Shown in pieces: positions 1 to 56,326 of a DNA stretch of 64,000 nt. The translations under genes and the position numbers were made by a program. The notes beneath the pieces are model-generated. The model did not search any database and was not told where the DNA came from. It saw only the letters and a program-made list of their open reading frames with translations. Location of the stretch: the sequence record OR352941.1, one strand, 5' to 3'. The stretch is from Escherichia phage AV111. Position 1 is the first letter of the stretch, and each line of letters starts with the position of its first letter.

Positions 1-292
1 ATTCTGAAGCACCAAATTCTGAATCATAGAACAAACAAATTGCATCTTTATATTTCTTCATATATGCTGCAACCATGGTCAGTCCAAACAACGTTTTAAA
101 GTGTTTAGAAGGAGCAGCAAAAATAGTCAAGCCTGATTGCAATCCTGCATTCAGAGCACCACCTAGTGCAATATTCAACATCGGAATACGAGTAGGGACT
201 TCATCACGATTATTAAACAGCTTAGACTTAGTCAAGTCTGCAGTCATTTTAGAAGTAGAAGCTTTAATCAGACGAGATTTTAAATCAGACAT
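1..292 (-). CDS. uvsX: UvsX recombinase (RecA-like), N-terminal part; gene continues past window start
   Basis: Reverse-complement translation from ATG at 290-292 reads MSDLKSRLIKASTSKMTADLTKSK...FYDSEFGASE, matching T4 UvsX N-terminus; absent from ORF track because truncated by window edge. Confidence 0.9.
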   Translation of the reverse strand, partial: MSDLKSRLIKASTSKMTADLTKSKLFNNRDEVPTRIPMLNIALGGALNAGLQSGLTIFAAPSKHFKTLFGLTMVAAYMKKYKDAICLFYDSEFGASE

Positions 293-390
293 TGTATTTT
301 TCCATAGGCATCATTATATTTTACTCATGTTTAAAAGATAAGATGATTATATACTAAGAGTTATACAGCATTTAAAACTTTAAATGGCTC

Positions 391-939
391 TTAACGAGCC
401 CATTTAATGATTTCTGTAATCAAATTATTACGTTCGCTTGCATTAAATCCTATAACTTTGTTAGAACCATCATGATTAAGTAATTGATACGTTTGGATTT
501 TGTTATGAATTGCAAACTCTTCAAAATGTGAAATGACTGTATTAAAACCGAATGAAGACAAAGTAATAAGGTCGTCTTCAAAACTTTCAGACATTTCGTT
601 ACGTGTTAAAATAATTGTGAACACATCATGGTTTTGGCAAAGACGAACATAATCCTGTTCATAAACGTCAAGAACCGAGTCCGCATCTTGTCGAATACGT
701 CCATAAACCCAGTTACTAATATATCCACGGTCTAACAGATAAATCTTAGTAGGGTCTAAATAATTCAACATCGTTTCGAAACAGCCAACTTCATTTCGAG
801 ACTTAACATCGAAACGTCCATCAACTGTTCGTTTAGGGAAATCAATCTTTACATATCTTTCACTAATTTCCATTATGTCATTAATGAAAGTTGTTTTACC
901 AGCATTATCTGGGCCATCTACTAAAATAATTTTAGCCAT
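391..939 (-). CDS. P-loop (Walker A GPDNAGKTT) nucleotide/nucleoside kinase-like protein, 182 aa
   Basis: ORF track; N-terminal MAKIILVDGPDNAGKTTF resembles dNMP/thymidylate-kinase-type P-loop; sits where T4 has beta-gt region genes. Confidence 0.6.
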   Translation of the reverse strand: MAKIILVDGPDNAGKTTFINDIMEISERYVKIDFPKRTVDGRFDVKSRNEVGCFETMLNYLDPTKIYLLDRGYISNWVYGRIRQDADSVLDVYEQDYVRLCQNHDVFTIILTRNEMSESFEDDLITLSSFGFNTVISHFEEFAIHNKIQTYQLLNHDGSNKVIGFNASERNNLITEIIKWAR

Positions 940-940
940 T

Positions 941-1840
941 TTATTCCTCGATTACGACATCTTCATATTTAGGTATATTATACGGCGAAGAAATTAAAGC
1001 GTTAAAGTAGATGAACTCACCAAGACCTGGATGGAATACTTCTTCAGGATTTTCGAAATATTGAATCTTCGGACGTCCTTTAAGAATTTGATAGTACTCA
1101 GTTTTAGTTGGATTAAAAATTCGAATCAGCGCTTCTTCAGGATACTTATTTCTGTCGAAACTATTATTTGGATCAGTTATATAAAGCGGTTGACCTAATT
1201 GAATTGCGCATTCAACCACTTGTTCAAAACGATAGCATGGGTCACTAATTCGAAATGGATGAAAAATACCATCTAGATGAATAGGAGCCAAATCACCTAC
1301 AAGACGCTGCATGACGGAAGGACGTATAACTTTCTGCGTTACGATAATCTTATTACCATCTGCACCTGCGTTAACCAGCACTTCTTTTTGACGTTCATTC
1401 AACACAGTAGTTTGAAGTGAACGATTAACAGACAACATGTCGGTTTTTAAGAATTCATCAATATAAAAACGTGGTTTATTAGGGTCTGCAGTGATATTGA
1501 AATTGAATTCTACATCAAAAGCGCCGTCATATCCAGTGATATCTGTGATTAGAAAATCGCAATCATAATAAGCAATTAATGAATCAACTACAAATTCATT
1601 TTCAGACCAGAAATATTTACGAGTGTTATACGCGTTATCTTTATACCATAATGGAACAAACTTAAATTCTGGAAAAAGACGTTCGCATTCTTTAATATCA
1701 GATGCATTACGTGGATATGTAATCACATCACCCGGATTAGCACGGTGCAAATGAAGTTGGAAGTTGCCATCCTTAAGGATAGCATACTGTCCAGTTTCAT
1801 AAGACCGCATACTCAAGATAGGTACGCGGAAAATAGCCAT
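941..1840 (-). CDS. hypothetical protein, 299 aa (occupies the T4 beta-gt position; function unknown, candidate transferase)
   Basis: ORF track; tightly packed between P-loop gene and 42-like gene (1-nt spacing/overlap); no recognisable motif by eye. Confidence 0.6.
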   Translation of the reverse strand: MAIFRVPILSMRSYETGQYAILKDGNFQLHLHRANPGDVITYPRNASDIKECERLFPEFKFVPLWYKDNAYNTRKYFWSENEFVVDSLIAYYDCDFLITDITGYDGAFDVEFNFNITADPNKPRFYIDEFLKTDMLSVNRSLQTTVLNERQKEVLVNAGADGNKIIVTQKVIRPSVMQRLVGDLAPIHLDGIFHPFRISDPCYRFEQVVECAIQLGQPLYITDPNNSFDRNKYPEEALIRIFNPTKTEYYQILKGRPKIQYFENPEEVFHPGLGEFIYFNALISSPYNIPKYEDVVIEE

Positions 1841-2556
1841 TAGTCAAGGAATCCTTTAACATAATCAAAATCACGTTCAAACACATGGGCACTTACCATG
1901 GTATGAGTATAATCACCAACTTCTACACCACATTCGTTAGCGATATAATGAAGTAATTTTCCTTGGAGATAAAAATCCAACTGCATAACAACAGCACAGT
2001 TCTGAGAACGCATATGACAGTGGGTATAAAGCTTACCATCACGAATATAATAAGTCACTGAGTCAGTACATGGATATTCAAGCGTTTCGTCTGAATCAAG
2101 CAAAGCCTGATCAGAACTTTCTAGAATTTGGAACACAACTCTTCGAGAGTTAGGCTTCTCTTTAAGTTCTTTTAGAAGAGCTGGTAATTGAGCCGCAATG
2201 CGAGGACCATAGAAAGTGTTGAAGTTCGCCGGCAAAACATCTGATTTTGGTTTAGAAATAAATTTAGCGACATTAGGATATGCCTTAAACGCTTCTTCTG
2301 CGTTGGTACCACCAGAAATCATAAACTTCCAGAAGTCTTCGGCATATTCATAAGAGATGCGGTTAATACGTGGGTCGGTCATTTTGAATGATGACGGAGT
2401 GTCAACAACTACTGTCATAGACCCAATTTCATTACAACGTCCAATACGAGAATCAGTTACGAATTCCGGGTTTTCTAAAATTTCACGATTGACTGCTTTA
2501 AATGCGGTTTGAAAATCTGCGGCTTTGATATATTTCATTGTGTTATGTTTTCCCAT
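1840..2556 (-). CDS. 42: thymidylate-synthase-family pyrimidine hydroxymethylase (gene 42 position, divergent dCMP hydroxymethylase homolog)
   Basis: Motifs PNSRRVVF, YPCTDSVTYYIRDGKL and HMRSQNCAVVMQLDF parallel the T4 gp42 PDSRRG / CTNTVQYLIRD / MRSNDVVFG blocks, but overall identity to T4 gp42 as I recall it is low. Confidence 0.7.
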   Translation of the reverse strand: MGKHNTMKYIKAADFQTAFKAVNREILENPEFVTDSRIGRCNEIGSMTVVVDTPSSFKMTDPRINRISYEYAEDFWKFMISGGTNAEEAFKAYPNVAKFISKPKSDVLPANFNTFYGPRIAAQLPALLKELKEKPNSRRVVFQILESSDQALLDSDETLEYPCTDSVTYYIRDGKLYTHCHMRSQNCAVVMQLDFYLQGKLLHYIANECGVEVGDYTHTMVSAHVFERDFDYVKGFLD

Positions 2557-2597
2557 GTTTACCTCAATACAATTATTATATACTCAATTCGTAAAGC

Positions 2598-2837
2598 TTA
2601 TTTGAATTTCTTGGCAGTGTTGATATAACGTAAAGCTTCAGCATCGATACTTCCAAGAACACTATGAAGAAATGCATCAGCGTAGTATTCCAATTGAACA
2701 GATTCTTTAATCACTTTAGCCGCTTTAGTTTCAAACAGGCCCATCAGGGCCTTTTTAAGAATTTGTTCATTAGTGTTCAGTTTCATAGTCAAAATCTCTT
2801 CATTAAGTTGGTGGTTAAAAGTTTTTCTAGAAATCAT
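2598..2837 (-). CDS. hypothetical protein, 79 aa
   Basis: ORF track; overlaps stop of upstream gene by 4 nt, operon-like packing. Confidence 0.45.
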   Translation of the reverse strand: MISRKTFNHQLNEEILTMKLNTNEQILKKALMGLFETKAAKVIKESVQLEYYADAFLHSVLGSIDAEALRYINTAKKFK

Positions 2838-3994
2838 TCCGGGTACCTCAAAGCGTCATCAGAGTTAGTTATATCAATAATAGATATAGAGTTTTCTGCT
2901 AACCCGTTTTTAGATAATTGACGTTTATAATATCTTTCACAATATGTACACGTCGTCCCGCAGATTTCATTAGCACAATCGAAATCTGGATGTCTGAACC
3001 ACCTTTTTTCTAAAAAGCCATCTAACAAAGAGGTTTCAATATTTACTGTATGTGAAAACTCAGTTTCGTTTTCAAGAGTGAAAATAGTCTCTAAAGGCTT
3101 CCACAGTTCTAACAAATTACCTTCAAACTTTTCAGAAGCGTATGCTTCAAGAACTTTCAAAATGTAGTCTGTGCTACCTGTACGTCCTGAAACTTTGAAT
3201 TGAGTGATACCAATATCATTATAAAGTTTCAAATCTTGAGGACGAACAAAACGAGTTCTCAACCAGTTAAATGGGTCTGTATCACGAGCTTTAATACAGT
3301 GCTGCATAGGATATCCGTTTAAGGATTTAGCATCATCAGCTGTAACATCAGTACTATGGAAAATATAGCAAGAGTCACGATAGCTACAATGTGTTGTATA
3401 CCCTTTACCAGCATTAGAACAGAACTCATTTACAAGAACTTCAAATATTATATTGTTCTTATTGCAAAACTCTGCTGCACGCTTCAGGAAAGAAACTGAA
3501 CGGTTCTTATGAATTCCACAGCAGACCTTTTTGATATTATATTGGTCATGCAAGTATTTGATTTGAGTTACAGCATCGACATGTAGAATTGTTGAAACTT
3601 CAATCTCAATGTCTTTATTGACTTCACGAACAATTTCCATAACAACAGGGTTAGCGATAGTAATACGCCATACGCCTATTGACCAAAGATACTGAACATA
3701 ATCCTGAATAGCTTTCTTCTTCCACTCAACTAGTTCTCTTTTTGAACCAGGATTTATCGTGTTGAGTGTATAGTTAAAGCAAATACCTAATTCGTTACAA
3801 CGTTTAACGTAATCTTCTAACATCTTTTTGTCAACGTCAGGAAGCCTAAAATCAGGTCTGGCTGCTACAAAAGCCATTTCTCTTGTAGAGCCGTATACTT
3901 CGTTTATCAAGCTATTAGGATAGGTTTTATTGAGCTCTACGATTTTATCAAGAAGAGCTAAATCAAAATTCGTTCCGATTTTAAAAGTATTCAT
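2834..3994 (-). CDS. cysteine-rich hypothetical protein, 386 aa (possible metal/Fe-S binding; modification-island gene)
   Basis: ORF track; C-terminal FDCANEICGTTCTYCERYY (Cx4Cx3Cx2C) plus other Cys clusters; no confident family assignment. Confidence 0.6.
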   Translation of the reverse strand: MNTFKIGTNFDLALLDKIVELNKTYPNSLINEVYGSTREMAFVAARPDFRLPDVDKKMLEDYVKRCNELGICFNYTLNTINPGSKRELVEWKKKAIQDYVQYLWSIGVWRITIANPVVMEIVREVNKDIEIEVSTILHVDAVTQIKYLHDQYNIKKVCCGIHKNRSVSFLKRAAEFCNKNNIIFEVLVNEFCSNAGKGYTTHCSYRDSCYIFHSTDVTADDAKSLNGYPMQHCIKARDTDPFNWLRTRFVRPQDLKLYNDIGITQFKVSGRTGSTDYILKVLEAYASEKFEGNLLELWKPLETIFTLENETEFSHTVNIETSLLDGFLEKRWFRHPDFDCANEICGTTCTYCERYYKRQLSKNGLAENSISIIDITNSDDALRYPE

Positions 3995-4056
3995 TTTTTT
4001 TGCATCTCGCGTTAATTGATGCGATGGTTTTTTTTTTGCAGGTCTTACTTAAATTA

Positions 4057-4458
4057 TTATAGATTCGGTTTATATGATTTAAATGTTTCGAATTCGCCTT
4101 TATTCATAAGAGCTTTGAATTCATCAGGACGCATAGCTTTGTCGTCGATAATCCAATCATATACTGGTTTATGTGTTAGCAAATTATGGTACTTCAAACC
4201 AATGTTTTCCAAGTTCTGAATAAGACTTGGGAGAATGTCAATTGCTATACGACCAGGACCTACTGACTTCATACCACGAGCAGTGTAAAGCGTTATGGTA
4301 TGCCCTGCATCATACAGGGCATTAATGGCAGACACCATTTCGACGTCTGGTTTGAAGTTCACGTAATCACGATTGTTATTCCATTCCGTGATGCAATCAT
4401 CGACATCAAAACAAAGATTAAGCATGTTTTCTACACAGTGCATTAGATTCGTTCCCAT
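4057..4458 (-). CDS. HAD-superfamily sugar-phosphate phosphatase (KdsC/GmhB-like), 133 aa
   Basis: N-terminal FDVDDCIT = HAD motif I (DxD); small size typical of HAD IIIA phosphatases; overlaps upstream gene end. Confidence 0.65.
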   Translation of the reverse strand: MGTNLMHCVENMLNLCFDVDDCITEWNNNRDYVNFKPDVEMVSAINALYDAGHTITLYTARGMKSVGPGRIAIDILPSLIQNLENIGLKYHNLLTHKPVYDWIIDDKAMRPDEFKALMNKGEFETFKSYKPNL

Positions 4459-6128
4459 TGATGAGTGATATCGCCACCGATTGGACGATAAGAAACACCA
4501 GTTTCTTTATCAGTTAGTACCCATTTACCAGGATTTTTTGTAATCAGAGTAGCCGTTACAGGTTCTGCTACGTCATAACTAATAGAGCCGTCTTGAAGTA
4601 CACGGCCCATGTTACGTAATTGCTTAGTCAGAAGTTCCATACCTTTATAATATGCTGCTACCGCTTTAAGTGGATTATTCTTGAAATAACCACCTAATGC
4701 AATCCAGATAATTGCTACAGCCAAATGATGATACTCGTTAAACGAACTCATCTTTCCATATTTGTAAACTAATGGATTGATGTTAATAGTCACATTACAA
4801 GTTGTTTCATCAATAGTAAACTGTCCCCAGGCCGGATTAGCATTGAATTCATCATAACCTGAAACAGCATAAAGCACTTTAGCTTCATCATACAATTTTG
4901 GCCCGTAAATCTTGGTTTCGCCAAAATATCCACGAGGGTCGATAAACTTGACTTCGCCGTTATCAGTAATCATAGTATTACTGAAGTTCGGGTCACCATG
5001 AATAACAGAGTACTGTCCCTGAGAACGGTTATGATAACGAATAAGGTGTTCTAAAGCTTGTTTCAGCATTGGCTTCAGACGTCCAATCTTAGTGTAGTTC
5101 ACATGTGTGATTTTACCAAATGAATCAATCAATGGTTGAATACTTTCACAACGATCAATAACTTTCGTATAGAATTCTTTAGTGAAATCACGACGAACAG
5201 TTTCAGGACTTACAAAATAAGTGTCTGTGCTGAATTTCAGTGCATCTAAAATTGCATCAACAATTTGTGGACGAGCAAGACTTGATTTGGATTTAATATA
5301 TTCAAATGCCGGCTTACCTTTAATGCGTTCCATTTCAAAGTTATTTTCATTAACAGAAACTAACTGAGGAACTGAATCTGATTTCACTTTAAGATACCAC
5401 GAAATCTCATCTTTCTGAAGAGCTCGACCCTGTTCGGTTAATGCGAATTTAGTTACAGTTTCTTCACCAATTTCAACTGCATTAAAACTACGATTAAGTT
5501 CACGAACTTCATGAGCTTTTTCAAGTTTAGGCATATCACCTAAATCAATTAGATTCATAAGCTCTGATTTATTGAATGCGCTGCCGTAAAGGAATTCTAC
5601 GAAATCACGTCCTTTGCAGTATTCATGAATTTCCTCATCGGTAGAACCCATATAGAATTCCCAGTCTTTGAACTGATAAATTCCTACAACATTACCACCT
5701 GTTGAACCTACGTTAGTGATATTTTCACCGTCGAAATTATATCGACATTCATCACCCTTAACATAGATTGCGTTAACATTCCAAGACCATGAACCAAAAT
5801 CAGGAATAATATCACACCAGTTAACAATTACGTTATGGCCGTCTAAATCTTTGTGTAATTTAGCAAGAGCATAAGCAGAACCATACGCTTCATCAACTGT
5901 ACGAATAGTCACATTGAACCCTTCTTGCTCACAATAAGCTCGAACAGTTTCAGCAAATTTTGAATGAACTACTACAATAATTTCATCTGCGCCAAGGTCA
6001 GAATAAATTGTATACAAATTGCTCAGAATAGTGTCTTGTTTATAGTTAACAAGCACCTTAGGAATATGATGCGTTATTGGATACAAACGAGTTGCCAGTC
6101 CAGCACCAAGAATAACAGCTTTTTTCAT
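4443..6128 (-). CDS. bifunctional sugar-1-phosphate nucleotidyltransferase (N-terminal) / sugar anomeric kinase (C-terminal APH/ChoK-like), 561 aa
   Basis: N-terminus MKKAVILGAGLATRLYPITHHIPKVLV = GxGxRLxPxT pyrophosphorylase signature; C-terminus VIHGDPNFSNTMITDNGEVKFIDPRGYFG = HGDxxxxN catalytic loop of APH/choline-kinase fold. Confidence 0.75.
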   Translation of the reverse strand: MKKAVILGAGLATRLYPITHHIPKVLVNYKQDTILSNLYTIYSDLGADEIIVVVHSKFAETVRAYCEQEGFNVTIRTVDEAYGSAYALAKLHKDLDGHNVIVNWCDIIPDFGSWSWNVNAIYVKGDECRYNFDGENITNVGSTGGNVVGIYQFKDWEFYMGSTDEEIHEYCKGRDFVEFLYGSAFNKSELMNLIDLGDMPKLEKAHEVRELNRSFNAVEIGEETVTKFALTEQGRALQKDEISWYLKVKSDSVPQLVSVNENNFEMERIKGKPAFEYIKSKSSLARPQIVDAILDALKFSTDTYFVSPETVRRDFTKEFYTKVIDRCESIQPLIDSFGKITHVNYTKIGRLKPMLKQALEHLIRYHNRSQGQYSVIHGDPNFSNTMITDNGEVKFIDPRGYFGETKIYGPKLYDEAKVLYAVSGYDEFNANPAWGQFTIDETTCNVTININPLVYKYGKMSSFNEYHHLAVAIIWIALGGYFKNNPLKAVAAYYKGMELLTKQLRNMGRVLQDGSISYDVAEPVTATLITKNPGKWVLTDKETGVSYRPIGGDITHQWERI

Positions 6129-6169
6129 GTTGAAGTCCTCATTGGTAAGTAGGAGTATTGTACACTATT

Positions 6170-6313
6170 CTAGTTAAAGCATTCATACTTTGCTTGTAGT
6201 CCAATCATAATCCATCCAATTACAAGTGTTGGAATCATTACCGGAGCCGTTAAGCTCCAGTAGATAGTCATGACAAGCATCAATAGTAAAAGTCCTATTG
6301 TTATTGCTTTCAT
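6170..6313 (-). CDS. small hydrophobic membrane protein, 47 aa (not in ORF track; imm-region small protein)
   Basis: Own translation MKAITIGLLLLMLVMTIYWSLTAPVMIPTLVIGWIMIGLQAKYECFN; ATG overlaps stop of SIS gene (ATGA). Confidence 0.4.
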   Translation of the reverse strand: MKAITIGLLLLMLVMTIYWSLTAPVMIPTLVIGWIMIGLQAKYECFN

Positions 6314-6945
6314 TGTTCGCCTCGTAACATGGCACCTAGTGCACCGCCTGGATGGAACTTAAGGAAATCATTAGAGGTAAATCCACGTTCAGACGAAAGG
6401 TTGATAGCAAACGTATCGATAAGCGCTAACAACAATGTAGTGGACATTGTCGGAGCTAAAGAGTTCTCGTCAACTTCTACCGCGATACCGGTACAGAACG
6501 TATAATCAAAAAGAGCTTCGTATTCTTGTGGAATGTCAGGGTTACAATGTAACAGAATCTGTTTAACCTGAGGACGAATCATACGAAGATGTTTAGCAAC
6601 ACCTATCATTTCTTCAGTCTTACCAGAACGACTGATGTGAACTAATACATCATTAGGTGCAATAAATCCTGCGTCACCATGAGAATAATGCCCAGTGTTC
6701 AAGTACATACTCGGGATACCGAGTGAAGCAAATGTCTCAGAAGCTTTAGTTGCGATATTAGCATTCTTACCAACACCTGTAATAATTACCCGGCTTTCAT
6801 AATTGCTAAGTCCGGGGCGTCGAAGAGTTTCTAGAATAGCATTATAACGAGCAGGGTTTTGACTAATTACTTTGGCCATAGCGGCCAAAGAAGAAGCTTG
6901 TTTTATGATTGCGTCAATAGCGATAGTAATAGGAGTAGTTTTCAT
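6310..6945 (-). CDS. SIS-domain sugar-phosphate isomerase (KdsD/KpsF-type arabinose-5-phosphate isomerase-like, no CBS domains), 211 aa
   Basis: RVIITGVGKNANIATKASETFASLGIPS...HGDAG resembles the KdsD GxGKSxxIxxKxAATxASTGTP...HGDLG core rather than the GmhA GNGGS motif. Confidence 0.7.
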   Translation of the reverse strand: MKTTPITIAIDAIIKQASSLAAMAKVISQNPARYNAILETLRRPGLSNYESRVIITGVGKNANIATKASETFASLGIPSMYLNTGHYSHGDAGFIAPNDVLVHISRSGKTEEMIGVAKHLRMIRPQVKQILLHCNPDIPQEYEALFDYTFCTGIAVEVDENSLAPTMSTTLLLALIDTFAINLSSERGFTSNDFLKFHPGGALGAMLRGEQ

Positions 6946-6985
6946 ATTTCTCTCATTTAATTAGTTTACCGTCCATGACATTATA

Positions 6986-9697
6986 TCAAAAATCGAACAT
7001 ATCGAACAGAGATGCTTTCTTCTCATAATCGAGTTTCGCTGCTGATGTGAATCCTTCAAGTGGTTTAATAAATGTCTTCTCAAGGAGAACAGTGTAGTCC
7101 ATCCAATGAAGTACATCGTCTTTAATTAAATCTGTGATTTCAGTACCAGAAGGCCATGCGATACATTTATCACCGAATGGGTTTCCTTCACGTAAAGGCA
7201 GAACATATACTTTTTCACCTTCTACAACTTGCGGCGCATCAATATTACCTTTGATAGCTCGGTTATATGTCAGAATTCCACGAATATGGAACGGGCATTT
7301 GGGGCCAGGGAATCCACCGACATCATATTTAGCAATGTTATTCGCAGAAGATACCGACGCGATGCTAATATAATTCAATTGACGGAATTCTTTTTCAAAC
7401 TCTTTAAAATATTCTTGTAATGATTCTTCACCTTCTTGAAGCATACGACGAATACATTCTTTAAGAGCTTTCTGTACTGCTTTAGGGGTCGAAGATTTCT
7501 GAGTCTCTAGACCCATGATTTTGAGTTTAGGCTCAGCGTAACGAGTGCCTTCCATATCCCACACGTTTAATGCATAACGTTTCTTACCAGTCCAGAATCC
7601 ACCAATACCTTTAGAACCGAGCGGAGGGCCAGCAATAGCTTCTCGGTCCATGAACATCAAATGTTGCTTATTATTCATGTATTCACACATTTCACGGAAA
7701 CCTCTATCAATAGCTGGTTCCATACGTTCACGTGCAAACTTATCTAAGAAGTCTACCCAATGGTTGGTATCACGGAATTTAGATTCACCAACCTTATCAA
7801 TAATTTTATCTGCAGATACGTAAATGGAGTCTGTATCACCATATAGAACGAAAGCTTCGCCTTCTGTACCACAAACTTCATTCAGATATTCATTAACTTT
7901 ACGTTCAATCCACTGTAAAGCCATTTGCCCAAATGTTGTGATTGCAGTTGCATTACGCAAATCGTAATAACGGAACCAAACGTTTCCAAGTGCACCATAA
8001 AGTGAGTTGATAAGCAATTTACGGTTAATCTGTGCAGTCATACCTGCAACTTCAGTACGTTGAGCTCTAAACAACATTTCATTAAGAGATTTAGCAGACA
8101 ACTTTTTAATCTTTTCTTTAATCTCATCACTGAAGTCGAAACGATAATCAACATCTAATGGTTCGTCAACAGAAAGATTAGGATTATGCAATGCCTCTTT
8201 AATTATTTCGCCATTACGTTGAGCTGCAAGCATGTAACCTTTATGTTCTTTACGTTGATTAAAGACCTTAGTGATTTCAGTTGGAACTACACCATCACGG
8301 TCTTTATAATACATCATGCCGTTAGGAGAGCAACTGTACACATCTGAAGGACGTTCAGCGATTGCGTTAATATAATCATGCAGTGGAGCTACTTTAAACG
8401 TTCCTGCTATTGTTTCAGGGCTAATATTCACTTGGCGAATAATACTTGGATACAGAGATGTAAGGTCGAAACTCATTACATATTTGTATCGATTTGGAAT
8501 AGGTTCCTTAACAAAAGCGCCAGGATAAGGTTGAACCGGGTGAGAACGACCTTGTGGAATCACCTTGTTCTGCTCTTTAAGGCTATTAAAAATAATAGCA
8601 TCCCATGTTTTAATTGGACTGAACACAGATTGAATCTGAATTTTAGCATAATAACCCATGTCCAAGCTCAAGTTAATGAACTGGCGTTTAGCATCAATTT
8701 GCAATACACGATATACGTCGATAATGTTATAAGAAATATATCGTTGGTGATTGCTTTCACGAAGCTTAGAAATAGGGCCGTCATATTTCAGTTTACCAAC
8801 GTTCAATTCAAATTCTGAAATGTAATCCAGAGAATACGACGGTTGGTTCGTGAAAGAGAACTTTTTGTAAAGGTCAATGTAATCAAGAACAGAGATACCG
8901 AACAATGTAATGATTTCACGAGAACCATACATGTTTTCGATAACTTTAACACGAGTTTTACGATGTGGTGATAAACGTTTCGCAGTAGATTCGCCAAAAA
9001 TATTCTTGATTCGGTTATACACATATGGAATATCAAATGACTCAACGTTCCATCCAGTCAAAATGACAGGAGTTTTCTGTTGCCAGAAGTTGAGATATTC
9101 CATCAACAATTCTTTTTCGTTATCGAACGGCATATAAATGATTTTATCGATAATTTCGGATGGAACTTCATCACCGCCTTGTTCTTGAAGCTTAGCAGCG
9201 ATTTCAATAGACCATTCTTCTACATTACCATATGGAGAATTCAATAGATCAAATACGTAGAACCTGTCGTCAATTGAGTCATAATGGGTGATAGCATCAA
9301 TCGGATGTTTTGCTTGTGACGGCTCAGGGAACCCATCCGGAGATGTTACTTCGATGTCGAAGTTAGCCACACGAATTTTTGTATGGTCGTATTTGATTTC
9401 ATAGTTATAAGTGTCAGACAAATACGCCAATTTGAAATCGTCCATGCCAAGTGCTTCAAGTCCGATATCTTCCATGCGTTTAATCCATTGAGACGCATCG
9501 CGCATATTAGCGAACAACTTACGAGTACACGGCTTACCGTAGATATCGAAATATTTCGTAGCCTGACTTTCTGGACAATGAGCAAACAGTGATGGTTTAT
9601 ATTCTACTTCACGAGTACGTTCACGGCCATTAGAATCGATGTAACGTTCAAAAATTGAATCACCAATCTGTTCAACCGTTAAGTAAAATTCTTTCAT
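6986..9697 (-). CDS. 43: DNA polymerase gp43 (family B, with 3'-5' exonuclease)
   Basis: 903 aa; N-terminus MKEFYLTVEQIGDSIFERYIDSNGRERTREVEY and motifs DIEVT, YGDTDS match RB69/T4 gp43. Confidence 0.97.
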   Translation of the reverse strand: MKEFYLTVEQIGDSIFERYIDSNGRERTREVEYKPSLFAHCPESQATKYFDIYGKPCTRKLFANMRDASQWIKRMEDIGLEALGMDDFKLAYLSDTYNYEIKYDHTKIRVANFDIEVTSPDGFPEPSQAKHPIDAITHYDSIDDRFYVFDLLNSPYGNVEEWSIEIAAKLQEQGGDEVPSEIIDKIIYMPFDNEKELLMEYLNFWQQKTPVILTGWNVESFDIPYVYNRIKNIFGESTAKRLSPHRKTRVKVIENMYGSREIITLFGISVLDYIDLYKKFSFTNQPSYSLDYISEFELNVGKLKYDGPISKLRESNHQRYISYNIIDVYRVLQIDAKRQFINLSLDMGYYAKIQIQSVFSPIKTWDAIIFNSLKEQNKVIPQGRSHPVQPYPGAFVKEPIPNRYKYVMSFDLTSLYPSIIRQVNISPETIAGTFKVAPLHDYINAIAERPSDVYSCSPNGMMYYKDRDGVVPTEITKVFNQRKEHKGYMLAAQRNGEIIKEALHNPNLSVDEPLDVDYRFDFSDEIKEKIKKLSAKSLNEMLFRAQRTEVAGMTAQINRKLLINSLYGALGNVWFRYYDLRNATAITTFGQMALQWIERKVNEYLNEVCGTEGEAFVLYGDTDSIYVSADKIIDKVGESKFRDTNHWVDFLDKFARERMEPAIDRGFREMCEYMNNKQHLMFMDREAIAGPPLGSKGIGGFWTGKKRYALNVWDMEGTRYAEPKLKIMGLETQKSSTPKAVQKALKECIRRMLQEGEESLQEYFKEFEKEFRQLNYISIASVSSANNIAKYDVGGFPGPKCPFHIRGILTYNRAIKGNIDAPQVVEGEKVYVLPLREGNPFGDKCIAWPSGTEITDLIKDDVLHWMDYTVLLEKTFIKPLEGFTSAAKLDYEKKASLFDMFDF

Positions 9698-55591: not shown

Positions 55592-56326
55592 TTACCTTAA
55601 GATTTTTTCAATTTTAGAATAAAGCTCTTCTAAAGAGCCGTCGTTTGTAATAACTAAATCGCCTTCTTCAATAGGCAACCCAGCTTCTGTAATATGTTTA
55701 TCAGTGGATTCCGTACCAGAGCGAACCACATGAATAACTGTAGCACCCATCGCTCTAGCGGTTTCCATTTCATGGACTTGGCGTGTATCGGTCACAACGT
55801 AGTAATCGAAATCACTTCCAATATAATCCATATAGTTTAATGCAAAAAGCTTAACCCAATACATACGGTCAAATAAATTAACGACAACATCCGTACCGAG
55901 GGCTTGCATAAGACGGCGGATCGACCACGTGTCGTTGATATTATTTATAGCTTCACGCAGGGCTTCGTACGGTTTAATATCTAGATATGAGTATCCACCT
56001 TCTAAGGATGATAATACTTTAACATTATTAATTGGTAAATATTGACTTTGTAAATAAATTAGCGCTTCTTCCATTAATTCAATAACATCCAACTTATTGA
56101 TATTTAATGGTGTTTCACGGTCATATCCGACACCTTCAAAGTATTCGTATTTCAACTCCGTGAATACATCAGGGTTTTCAGCATGTTTACGCCCCCAGGC
56201 TATTGCTAGAGCGTCTTTAATCGGATATGCCAATTGATATTTTACGGATTTAAAGTTTGAATTGATGTAATCAGCAGTAGTGTCTTTACCACTACGTTTG
56301 ATGCCGCTTAAAAAGATTAGCTCCAT
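55592..56326 (-). CDS. 1: deoxynucleoside monophosphate kinase gp1
   Basis: 244 aa; LSGIKRSGKDTTADY P-loop; matches T4 gp1. Confidence 0.92.
   Translation of the reverse strand: MELIFLSGIKRSGKDTTADYINSNFKSVKYQLAYPIKDALAIAWGRKHAENPDVFTELKYEYFEGVGYDRETPLNINKLDVIELMEEALIYLQSQYLPINNVKVLSSLEGGYSYLDIKPYEALREAINNINDTWSIRRLMQALGTDVVVNLFDRMYWVKLFALNYMDYIGSDFDYYVVTDTRQVHEMETARAMGATVIHVVRSGTESTDKHITEAGLPIEEGDLVITNDGSLEELYSKIEKILR

Follow-up and report, generated by a model that had tools for sequence, protein, structure and literature searches.

The DNA of phage RB69 carries mono- and di-arabinofuranosyl groups that are ether-linked to the C5 oxygen of 5-hydroxycytosine (5hoC), not to hydroxymethylcytosine; the earlier assignment of RB69-type DNA as arabinosyl-hydroxymethylcytosine has since been corrected (PMC13326640). 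The hydroxyl group is introduced by RB69 gp48, a flavin-binding, O2-dependent synthase of 5-hydroxy-deoxycytidine monophosphate (5-hydroxy-dCMP, 5hodCMP), as established by in vivo 5hoC incorporation and 18O2 labelling. RB69 gp159, a kinase of the T4 gp1 type, converts 5hodCMP to the diphosphate (5hodCDP) in vitro, and gp48 and gp159 together are enough for 5hoC in E. coli DNA with no glycosyltransferase (GT) needed (PMC13326640). The same paper lists RB69 gp45 as a 'nucleotide kinase' and names gp46:47 'arabinosyltransferase 1', in both cases from structure predictions only, and reports that the DLP3 proteins gp76 and gp77 work on DNA (PMC13326640). The counterparts of gp45 and gp46:47 were analyzed here in Escherichia phage AV111 (record OR352941.1), using a stretch of 64,000 nucleotides referred to below as the window. 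They are encoded by two open reading frames (ORFs) of 182 and 299 amino acids (aa) at positions 391 to 1840, and this locus is the downstream end of the published arabinosyl-5hoC hypermodification cluster (Lee et al., NAR 2026, PMC13326640).

Both ORFs were found in the ORF listing of the window where the initial annotation had placed them. The 182-aa ORF begins MAKIILVDGPDNAGKTT and has its Walker A motif at residues 7-17, and both ORFs share the orientation of every neighbouring gene. In T4 the gene order is uvsX-segA-beta-gt-42. The window has the same positions apart from segA, and with that exception the uvsX and gene-42-like flanks and the positional match to T4 beta-gt noted in the initial annotation hold. 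The stop codon of the upstream gene overlaps the start of the 299-aa ORF (TAATG). The stop codon of the 299-aa ORF (TAA) is followed by a single base and then by the ATG of the 182-aa kinase, whose GAGG Shine-Dalgarno sequence sits within the final codons of the 299-aa ORF. Judged by this arrangement, the two genes are translationally coupled.

The 182-aa protein matched phrog_761 (3e-45) and the 299-aa protein phrog_3891 (1.1e-155 over residues 1-298). By tblastn the kinase was present in 343 phage records and the GT in 348, with matching genus counts. Conservation of this extent marks both ORFs as real genes and not as chance reading frames. The first 6.2 kb of the window matched Shigella phage JK42 at 98.8% identity, as well as about 150 further RB69-like phages; identity to phage JK45 was 98.5%. 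On these matches the window is assigned to an RB69-like Mosigvirus.

The reading favoured here, with moderate confidence, is that the 182-aa protein serves the module as a 5hodCMP kinase of its own and that the 299-aa protein is the first arabinofuranosyltransferase, most probably acting on DNA. An AlphaFold2 model of the 299-aa protein had a mean predicted local distance difference test score (pLDDT) of 95.6; a single-sequence AlphaFold2 model (pLDDT 36.8) was set aside. The accepted model comprised two Rossmann-like beta/alpha/beta domains with a cleft between them and a C-terminal helix crossing back, which is the GT-B (GT4-like) arrangement. No Pfam or NCBIfam family was reported at E <= 0.1, and neither Glycos_transf_1, Glyco_trans_4 nor the E-x7-E donor motif was found. 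A PDB search with a 71-sequence profile of the family gave no match, and hhalign detected no homology to T4 beta-gt or to the ORF003c-type GT. As all of these searches were empty, the protein was identified by fold alone. By that predicted fold it is a glycosyltransferase, in a separate family of its own. The residues R197, K246 and H270-P-G were invariant in the family and are candidate donor ligands.

The initial annotation had made the 299-aa protein a positional candidate for a sugar transferase and had proposed a fold check. The GT-B fold bears this out at fold level, and the protein is the predicted first sugar transferase of PMC13326640. Comparison with T4 beta-gt and with the RB69-type arabinosyltransferase, also proposed there, gave no homology, the latter being a different GT on the rIIA side. 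PDB 9iqz matched, at 3.6e-250, the 366-aa gene by rIIA, 20 kb away, which is gp004 in JK45 and corresponds to RB69 ORF003c. For that enzyme, attachment of the second arabinose, which is beta-linked, has been proposed (PMC13326640).

The 299-aa protein is a full-length orthologue of the RB69 gp46:47 family and adjoins the 5hodCMP synthase. In BFVD, RB69ORF047c (182 aa) and ORF046c (116 aa) corresponded to the two halves of the intact protein of the window at 98% identity. The gene is intact at 299 aa in the window and in more than 150 relatives, compared with two ORFs in the RB69 reference, in agreement with Lee et al., who explain the split of gp46:47 by sequencing error (PMC13326640). The Shewanella phage Thanatos encodes a protein, TH1_063, that is 47.5% identical to the 299-aa protein and is likewise placed between a thymidylate synthase (TS) homologue and the kinase (L005:5995-6897; loci of the comparison are given by L numbers). 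Thanatos is a mono-pentosylated phage and carries this GT type only. The 299-aa protein is predicted to be the first, base-proximal arabinofuranosyltransferase on 5hoC, most probably on DNA; its donor and acceptor we infer.

The neighbouring 'gene 42' product is a TS homologue. It was about 97% identical over its full length to PDB 9iqc/9ir2 (7.9e-161; identity counted from the alignment), and on this similarity is identified as a 5-hydroxy-dCMP synthase, not a dCMP hydroxymethylase. We take 9iqc/9ir2 to be the HY126 enzyme. If so, He et al. (Nat Chem Biol 2026) studied in HY126 a virus almost identical to that of the window.

A single-sequence PDB search with the 182-aa kinase returned noise only, and a 23-sequence profile was required. 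This profile matched the thymidylate kinases (Tmk) of vaccinia (5e-5), M. tuberculosis (4e-4) and human (3e-3), and YorR of SPbeta, an uncharacterized protein (1.2e-4). The invariant residues of the 182-aa family were D11, G14-K15, F34-P35-K36, D70-R71, S75-N76 and Y79. D11, F34-P35, D70-R71, S75-N76 and Y79 aligned with D9, F36-P37, D94-R95, S99-N100 and Y103 of M. tuberculosis Tmk, and the FP-x-R motif also aligned with FPQR of vaccinia Tmk. In the M. tuberculosis enzyme D9, F36-P37, R95, N100 and Y103 provide the contacts to the 3'-OH, the phosphate, base N3 and the 2' position. The P-loop with the 3'-OH Asp, FP-x-R/Y, DR and SN-x-x-Y motifs that mark thymidylate kinases were all found. Retention of the 3'-OH Asp and of the motifs of the deoxynucleoside monophosphate (dNMP) site points to a free 2'-deoxynucleoside monophosphate as acceptor, rather than DNA or a sugar.

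The protein is not a canonical Tmk by the curated models. The score for TIGR00041 (NCBIfam dTMP kinase) was 16.7 bits where the cut-off is 83.25, and PF02223 was unreported at E <= 0.1. The segment containing the thymine-O4 Arg (M. tuberculosis R74, human R76) was not aligned by HMMER, and no correspondence was assigned by the profile. With F54 tentatively placed by hand as the stacking Phe, the residue four positions on was a conserved Leu (L58) and the residue directly after F54 a conserved Glu (E55). The protein had no match to DNMK (PF21448), and the hidden Markov model of the kinase family missed the gp1 orthologue of the window. By sequence the 182-aa protein is a kinase of the thymidylate-kinase superfamily, distinct from canonical Tmk and unrelated to gp1, and 5-hydroxy-dCMP is its most likely substrate. 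The view of the initial annotation that it is an extra P-loop kinase beside gp1 was correct, the gp1-type kinase being recognized by PF21448. The outcome that would have undone the initial proposal, a non-transferase fold together with a canonical thymidylate kinase, was not what was seen: the fold is that of a transferase and the kinase lies far below the Tmk cut-off.

The kinase, GT and TS homologue genes co-occur strictly. The kinase was present in 44 of the 46 IMG/VR loci with a clear GT homologue, and the other two end at the GT, giving 44 of 44 informative loci. A TS homologue was directly upstream of the GT in all IMG/VR loci with an upstream flank. Eleven contexts were inspected singly, including those of distant metagenomic phages of 122-356 kb, and in all of them the kinase was beside the GT. 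In most loci the kinase comes after the GT, but in L011 its place is between TS homologue and GT, and in Dhakavirus it precedes the TS homologue. This varying position argues for functional coupling or selection rather than inherited synteny.

In Dhakavirus QL01 (L014:4773-5309; also L023-L027 and L032) the kinase was about 37% identical to that of the window and the GT 67%. The Dhakaviruses have no U32-family protein and no arabinose-5-phosphate isomerase nearby. Their pattern suggests gene shuffling or replacement inside the cluster.

A minimal module of a Flavodoxin_2-like protein, TS homologue, GT and kinase was seen in distant phages, with no sugar-activation genes nearby. The Flavodoxin_2-like genes were located at L004:6739-7293, at L010:5715-6275 and in L042-L055 (offset about -1200 from the GT). 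Their product could plausibly serve the flavin-dependent 5hodCMP synthase as its flavin reductase; no flavodoxin-like reductase of this kind is encoded in the Mosigvirus cluster. Phages with the minimal module probably use a host nucleotide sugar. As this class has no sugar-activation genes, the GT family is probably defined by its acceptor (5hoC) and not by arabinose. In non-T4 phages a set of nucleoside triphosphate (NTP) pyrophosphatase, kinase, GT and hydroxylase parallels T4 gp56, gp1, GT and gp42.

In Acinetobacter phages, represented by Konradin (L013, 2552-9773), the cluster comprises the isomerase, the bifunctional enzyme, the phosphatase, the TS homologue, the GT, the kinase and two additional GTs, and a U32 gene is missing between the phosphatase and the TS homologue. 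Acinetobacter accounted for 57 records each for the GT and the kinase, yet was not among the ten genera most often hit in the U32 search. In L064 and L067-L070, weakly similar GT-like homologues (24-28% identity) were directly downstream of a TS homologue, with no detectable Tmk-like kinase. These may come from phages with hydroxymethyl-type or other chemistry, and could connect the 299-aa GT family to other DNA glycosyltransferases.

According to the literature, the pathway begins with degradation of dCTP to dCMP, which the TS homologue hydroxylates at C5 with flavin and O2. A kinase converts 5-hydroxy-dCMP to the diphosphate, host nucleoside diphosphate kinase forms the triphosphate, and the polymerase places 5-hydroxy-dCTP into DNA. 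The isomerase, bifunctional enzyme and phosphatase make uridine diphosphate (UDP)-arabinofuranose, from which the sugar is passed to the 5-hydroxyl. Within this scheme the 299-aa protein, as a minimal GT-B enzyme, would add the first, base-proximal arabinofuranose to 5hoC, most probably on DNA. The 182-aa kinase would be specific for 2'-deoxynucleoside monophosphates and would act as the functional analogue of T4 gp1 in a mobile hydroxylase/GT/kinase module.

Several points weigh against this assignment. As gp159 phosphorylates 5hodCMP and suffices with gp48, the 182-aa kinase looks redundant in this phage. No single purified DLP3 GT arabinosylated 5hoC-DNA, and Lee et al. cannot tell whether the first sugar acceptor is the mononucleotide or DNA (PMC13326640). 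The GT family is acidic (isoelectric point (pI) 5.05 for the 299-aa protein, family median 5.2) compared with T4 beta-GT (pI 9.05). Incubation of TH1_063 with UTP and xylose-1-phosphate gave UDP-xylose, as detected by liquid chromatography-tandem mass spectrometry (PMC12838424). Outside He et al. 2026 and the 2025 paper of Mahler et al. in Cell Host Microbe, the literature yielded no direct enzyme assay of the 182-aa or 299-aa protein.

The main rival is a pre-replicative pathway, which we consider unlikely. The 299-aa GT would arabinosylate free 5hodCMP, the 182-aa kinase would handle arabinosyl-5hodCMP, a substrate too bulky for gp1, and the polymerase would incorporate the glycosylated triphosphate. 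Such a pathway would account for an extra kinase being kept in every informative locus although gp1 takes 5hodCMP, and for the retained Asp that binds a mononucleotide 3'-OH. It also fits the level of the first arabinosylation left open by Lee et al. and the inactivity of single GTs on 5hoC-DNA (PMC13326640). More weakly, its acidic pI sets the GT family apart from T4 beta-GT and brings it close to gp42 and gp1, which are soluble nucleotide enzymes, and the common gene order (hydroxylase, GT, kinase) is the reaction order. That order is, however, not constant, as the kinase positions in Dhakavirus and L011 demonstrate, and the negative in vitro assay on DNA may be merely technical. Phages that have the set of NTP-pyrophosphatase, kinase, GT and hydroxylase and no gp1 need the kinase regardless, which explains its presence without glycosylated nucleotides. 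To our knowledge, all characterized phage DNA glycosylation is post-replicative, following the T4 paradigm. DLP3 gp76 and gp77 operate on DNA, and 5hoC enters DNA in the absence of any GT (PMC13326640). If true, the pre-replicative reading would describe the first pathway in which the sugar of a glycosylated DNA is added ahead of replication.

There is a small chance that the 182-aa protein is an ordinary dTMP kinase that raises the supply of dTTP, its position in the cluster being incidental. It is labelled 'thymidylate kinase' in several genome records and in PHROG 761, and its best PDB profile matches are thymidylate kinases. It fails the curated TIGR00041 and PF02223 models, however, and its family was found solely with the 5hoC hydroxylase/GT module. 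T4 gp1 phosphorylates dTMP, and a gp1 orthologue is present in the same genome. Under the tentative manual placement described above, a Leu would occupy the position of the thymine-O4 Arg, four residues after the stacking Phe.

It is very improbable that the 299-aa protein is instead a UDP-pentose pyrophosphorylase that activates the sugar, as reported for TH1_063. TH1_063 is a true orthologue, as its identity and position indicate, and besides making UDP-xylose it gave no transfer to DNA, dCMP or dCTP (PMC12838424). The GT-B fold conflicts with that assignment of TH1_063 (PMC12838424). As far as the account in PMC13326640 extends, the pathway already has a dedicated pyrophosphorylase, the AfhE-type enzyme, and the Thanatos cluster has one in TH1_060. 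Since the acceptors used for Thanatos were unhydroxylated cytosine species (PMC12838424), absence of transfer is expected. The UDP-xylose could stem from reverse glycosyl transfer with contaminating UDP, which would itself point to a GT that binds a UDP-pentose. In view of the GT-B fold, and as the cluster has a pyrophosphorylase for this purpose, the UDP-xylose is regarded as the product of a probable side or reverse reaction.

The version in the initial annotation, in which the kinase acts on a hydroxymethyl nucleotide or on hydroxymethyl-pyrimidine DNA and the GT glycosylates hydroxymethylcytosine, drew on the gene-42-like neighbour and on the analogy that P-loop kinases occur in thymidine hypermodification clusters; it can hardly be maintained, as O-glycosylation of a hydroxyl requires no acceptor phosphorylation and the invariant Asp aligned with the Tmk 3'-OH ligand favours a free mononucleotide over DNA. 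By the published chemistry this version is largely refuted: RB69-type DNA has its sugar ether-linked to 5hoC and contains no hydroxymethylcytosine (PMC13326640). These phages make no hydroxymethyl pyrimidine; their TS homologue makes 5-hydroxy-dCMP and the sugar is arabinofuranose. Action of the kinase on hydroxymethylcytosine or DNA is likewise unsupported, the Tmk-type 3'-OH Asp and the FP-x-R, DR and SN-x-x-Y motifs being kept.

The further members of the cluster are listed in Table 1. The HAD-type phosphatase has a shorter start in the JK45 annotation. PMC13326640, citing He et al., gives the role of the RB69 gp51/AfhF-type phosphatase as conversion of arabinofuranose-1,5-bisphosphate to arabinofuranose-1-phosphate (Araf-1-P). 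In the bifunctional enzyme the PF00483 match was N-terminal and weak APH/kinase-type matches were C-terminal. The AfhE-type enzyme, characterized in HY126, yields UDP-arabinofuranose, as reported in PMC13326640.

Table 1. Positions of the cluster genes and associated features. Entries with an L number refer to comparison loci, all others to the window.
Feature	Position	Strand	Basis
uvsX, downstream of the 182-aa kinase gene	1..292		JK45 annotation
182-aa putative dNMP kinase of the thymidylate-kinase superfamily; RB69 gp45 orthologue	391..939	-	phrog_761, family profile
299-aa predicted GT-B fold glycosyltransferase; orthologue of RB69 gp46:47, DLP3 gp79 and Thanatos TH1_063	941..1840	-	phrog_3891, predicted structure
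238-aa TS homologue, predicted 5-hydroxy-dCMP synthase; RB69 gp48 orthologue	1840..2556	-	PF00303 2e-15
79-aa orphan ORF overlapping the U32 stop	2598..2837	-	phrog_8601
386-aa U32-family Fe-S protein; RB69 gp50	2834..3994	-	PF01136 7e-11
HAD-type phosphatase; orthologue of RB69 gp51 and HY126 AfhF	4057..4458	-	TIGR01689 1.9e-13, PHROG 1238
561-aa bifunctional sugar-1-phosphate nucleotidylyltransferase and kinase; orthologue of RB69 gp52:53 and HY126 AfhE	4443..6128	-	PF00483 8.5e-10
Arabinose-5-phosphate isomerase (SIS domain); RB69 gp55 orthologue	6310..6945	-	PF01380 9.6e-10, JK45 annotation, PMC13326640
T4 gp1-type dNMP kinase; RB69 gp159 orthologue	55592..56326	-	PF21448 DNMK 9.3e-97
U32 region, comparison locus L008	L008:4983-6394		
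U32 region, comparison locus L005	L005:7462-8852		

The gap of 98 nucleotides between the kinase stop and the uvsX start (293..390, minus strand) contains AAATGCTGTA and, about 13 nucleotides on, TATAAT. Judged by eye, these elements resemble a MotA-box middle promoter of T4; the sigma-70 scan did not exceed chance. If such a promoter is real, uvsX would have its own promoter and the upstream transcription unit would end with the kinase gene. A promoter and terminator scan of positions 1..7200 was not above the shuffled expectation (25 vs 27.7 and 4 vs 3.8, respectively), and no operon boundaries were obtained from it.

The U32-family iron-sulphur (Fe-S) protein was the most conserved protein of the cluster. 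It was searched for with an alignment query, as a single protein query returned itself only. Identity was at least 80% in all 221 phage records, including Thanatos, whose GT and kinase share 47% and 44% identity with those of the window, and ten cysteines were invariant. In Klebsiella phage KLB31 and in Thanatos a chorismate mutase gene lies directly downstream and overlaps the U32 stop (PF01817 at 1.3e-9 and 2e-8, respectively, both above the gathering score), and an Erwinia phage has a chorismate mutase annotation too. The product of chorismate mutase is prephenate. U32 Fe-S proteins such as RlhA, TrhP and UbiU/V are prephenate-dependent, O2-independent hydroxylases (PMC10990095). RlhA makes 5-hydroxycytidine in 23S rRNA (PMC5727448), and TrhP and TrhO form an anaerobic/aerobic pair for 5-hydroxyuridine (ho5U) (PMC6599085). 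Six non-T4 contigs with a Pol III alpha-type polymerase (L071, L089, L090, L091, L093 and L096) encode an NTP-pyrophosphatase, kinase, GT-like protein and U32. A TS homologue was absent from the 10 kb to each side, or from as much of it as the contig contained, about half of each contig being covered.

The pairing with chorismate mutase, the presence of U32 in place of the synthase and the known U32 hydroxylases together lead us to propose an oxygen-independent route to 5-hydroxycytosine. By analogy, the U32 protein of the window would provide a second, prephenate-dependent and O2-independent route to a 5-hydroxy pyrimidine. Two observations limit this proposal: the position of the chorismate mutase is held in Mosigvirus by an unrelated orphan, and the Dhakaviruses of E. 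coli have no U32. The orphan, a 79-aa ORF, had no Pfam match and only 5 relatives among 1.84 billion representative proteins. On these results, and as its sequence did not resemble the KLB31 enzyme, the idea that it is a chorismate mutase in diverged form was rejected. A strict rule by which U32 follows aerobic or anaerobic hosts was also rejected; it fits the U32-less Acinetobacter phages and is broken by the U32-less E. coli Dhakaviruses. RB69 gp50 is only a table entry in Lee et al., with no further discussion (PMC13326640), and no link between U32, prephenate and phage DNA was found in the literature searched. If true, such a route would explain anaerobic DNA modification by these gut phages and would add DNA precursors to RNA and quinones as targets of prephenate-dependent hydroxylation. 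This side observation may matter more than the kinase and GT finding.

The cluster is already known from papers of 2025-2026, and the present finding mainly re-discovers it and corrects hydroxymethyl to hydroxy chemistry. The kinase and GT are core genes of a widespread anti-restriction DNA modification, present in 340-350 sequenced phages whose hosts include Escherichia, Klebsiella, Acinetobacter and Serratia. Their strict association despite a competent gp1 frames the question at which level, nucleotide or DNA, the first sugar is attached.

Compared with the closest described systems, no difference was found between the 182-aa kinase and RB69 gp45, DLP3 gp78 or RL38J1_214, the 'nucleotide kinase' proteins of 5hoC clusters. 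With Tmk and YorR it shares the (D/E)G-x-D-x-x-GK(S/T)T P-loop and the FP-x-R, DR and SN-x-x-Y motifs. It differs from Tmk (PF02223/TIGR00041) in scoring below the curated thresholds, in the confinement of its family to 5hoC clusters and perhaps in the thymine-O4 Arg region, which the profile left unaligned. Relative to RB69 gp46:47, DLP3 gp79 and TH1_063, nothing material differs in the 299-aa protein save the intact ORF, its activity being predicted. The rIIA-proximal GT (RB69 ORF003c, HY126 PDB 9iqz, Bas46 Aat) belongs to an unrelated family (11% identity, hhalign probability 0.3%). T4 gp1 (PF21448) is also of a family unrelated to the 182-aa kinase, yet the role proposed for the latter, conversion of a modified dCMP to the diphosphate, is that of gp1 in T4. 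The most economical reading, by analogy, would be the T4 paradigm transposed, with dCTPase, hydroxylase, kinase and GT corresponding to gp56, gp42, gp1 and alpha/beta-GT.

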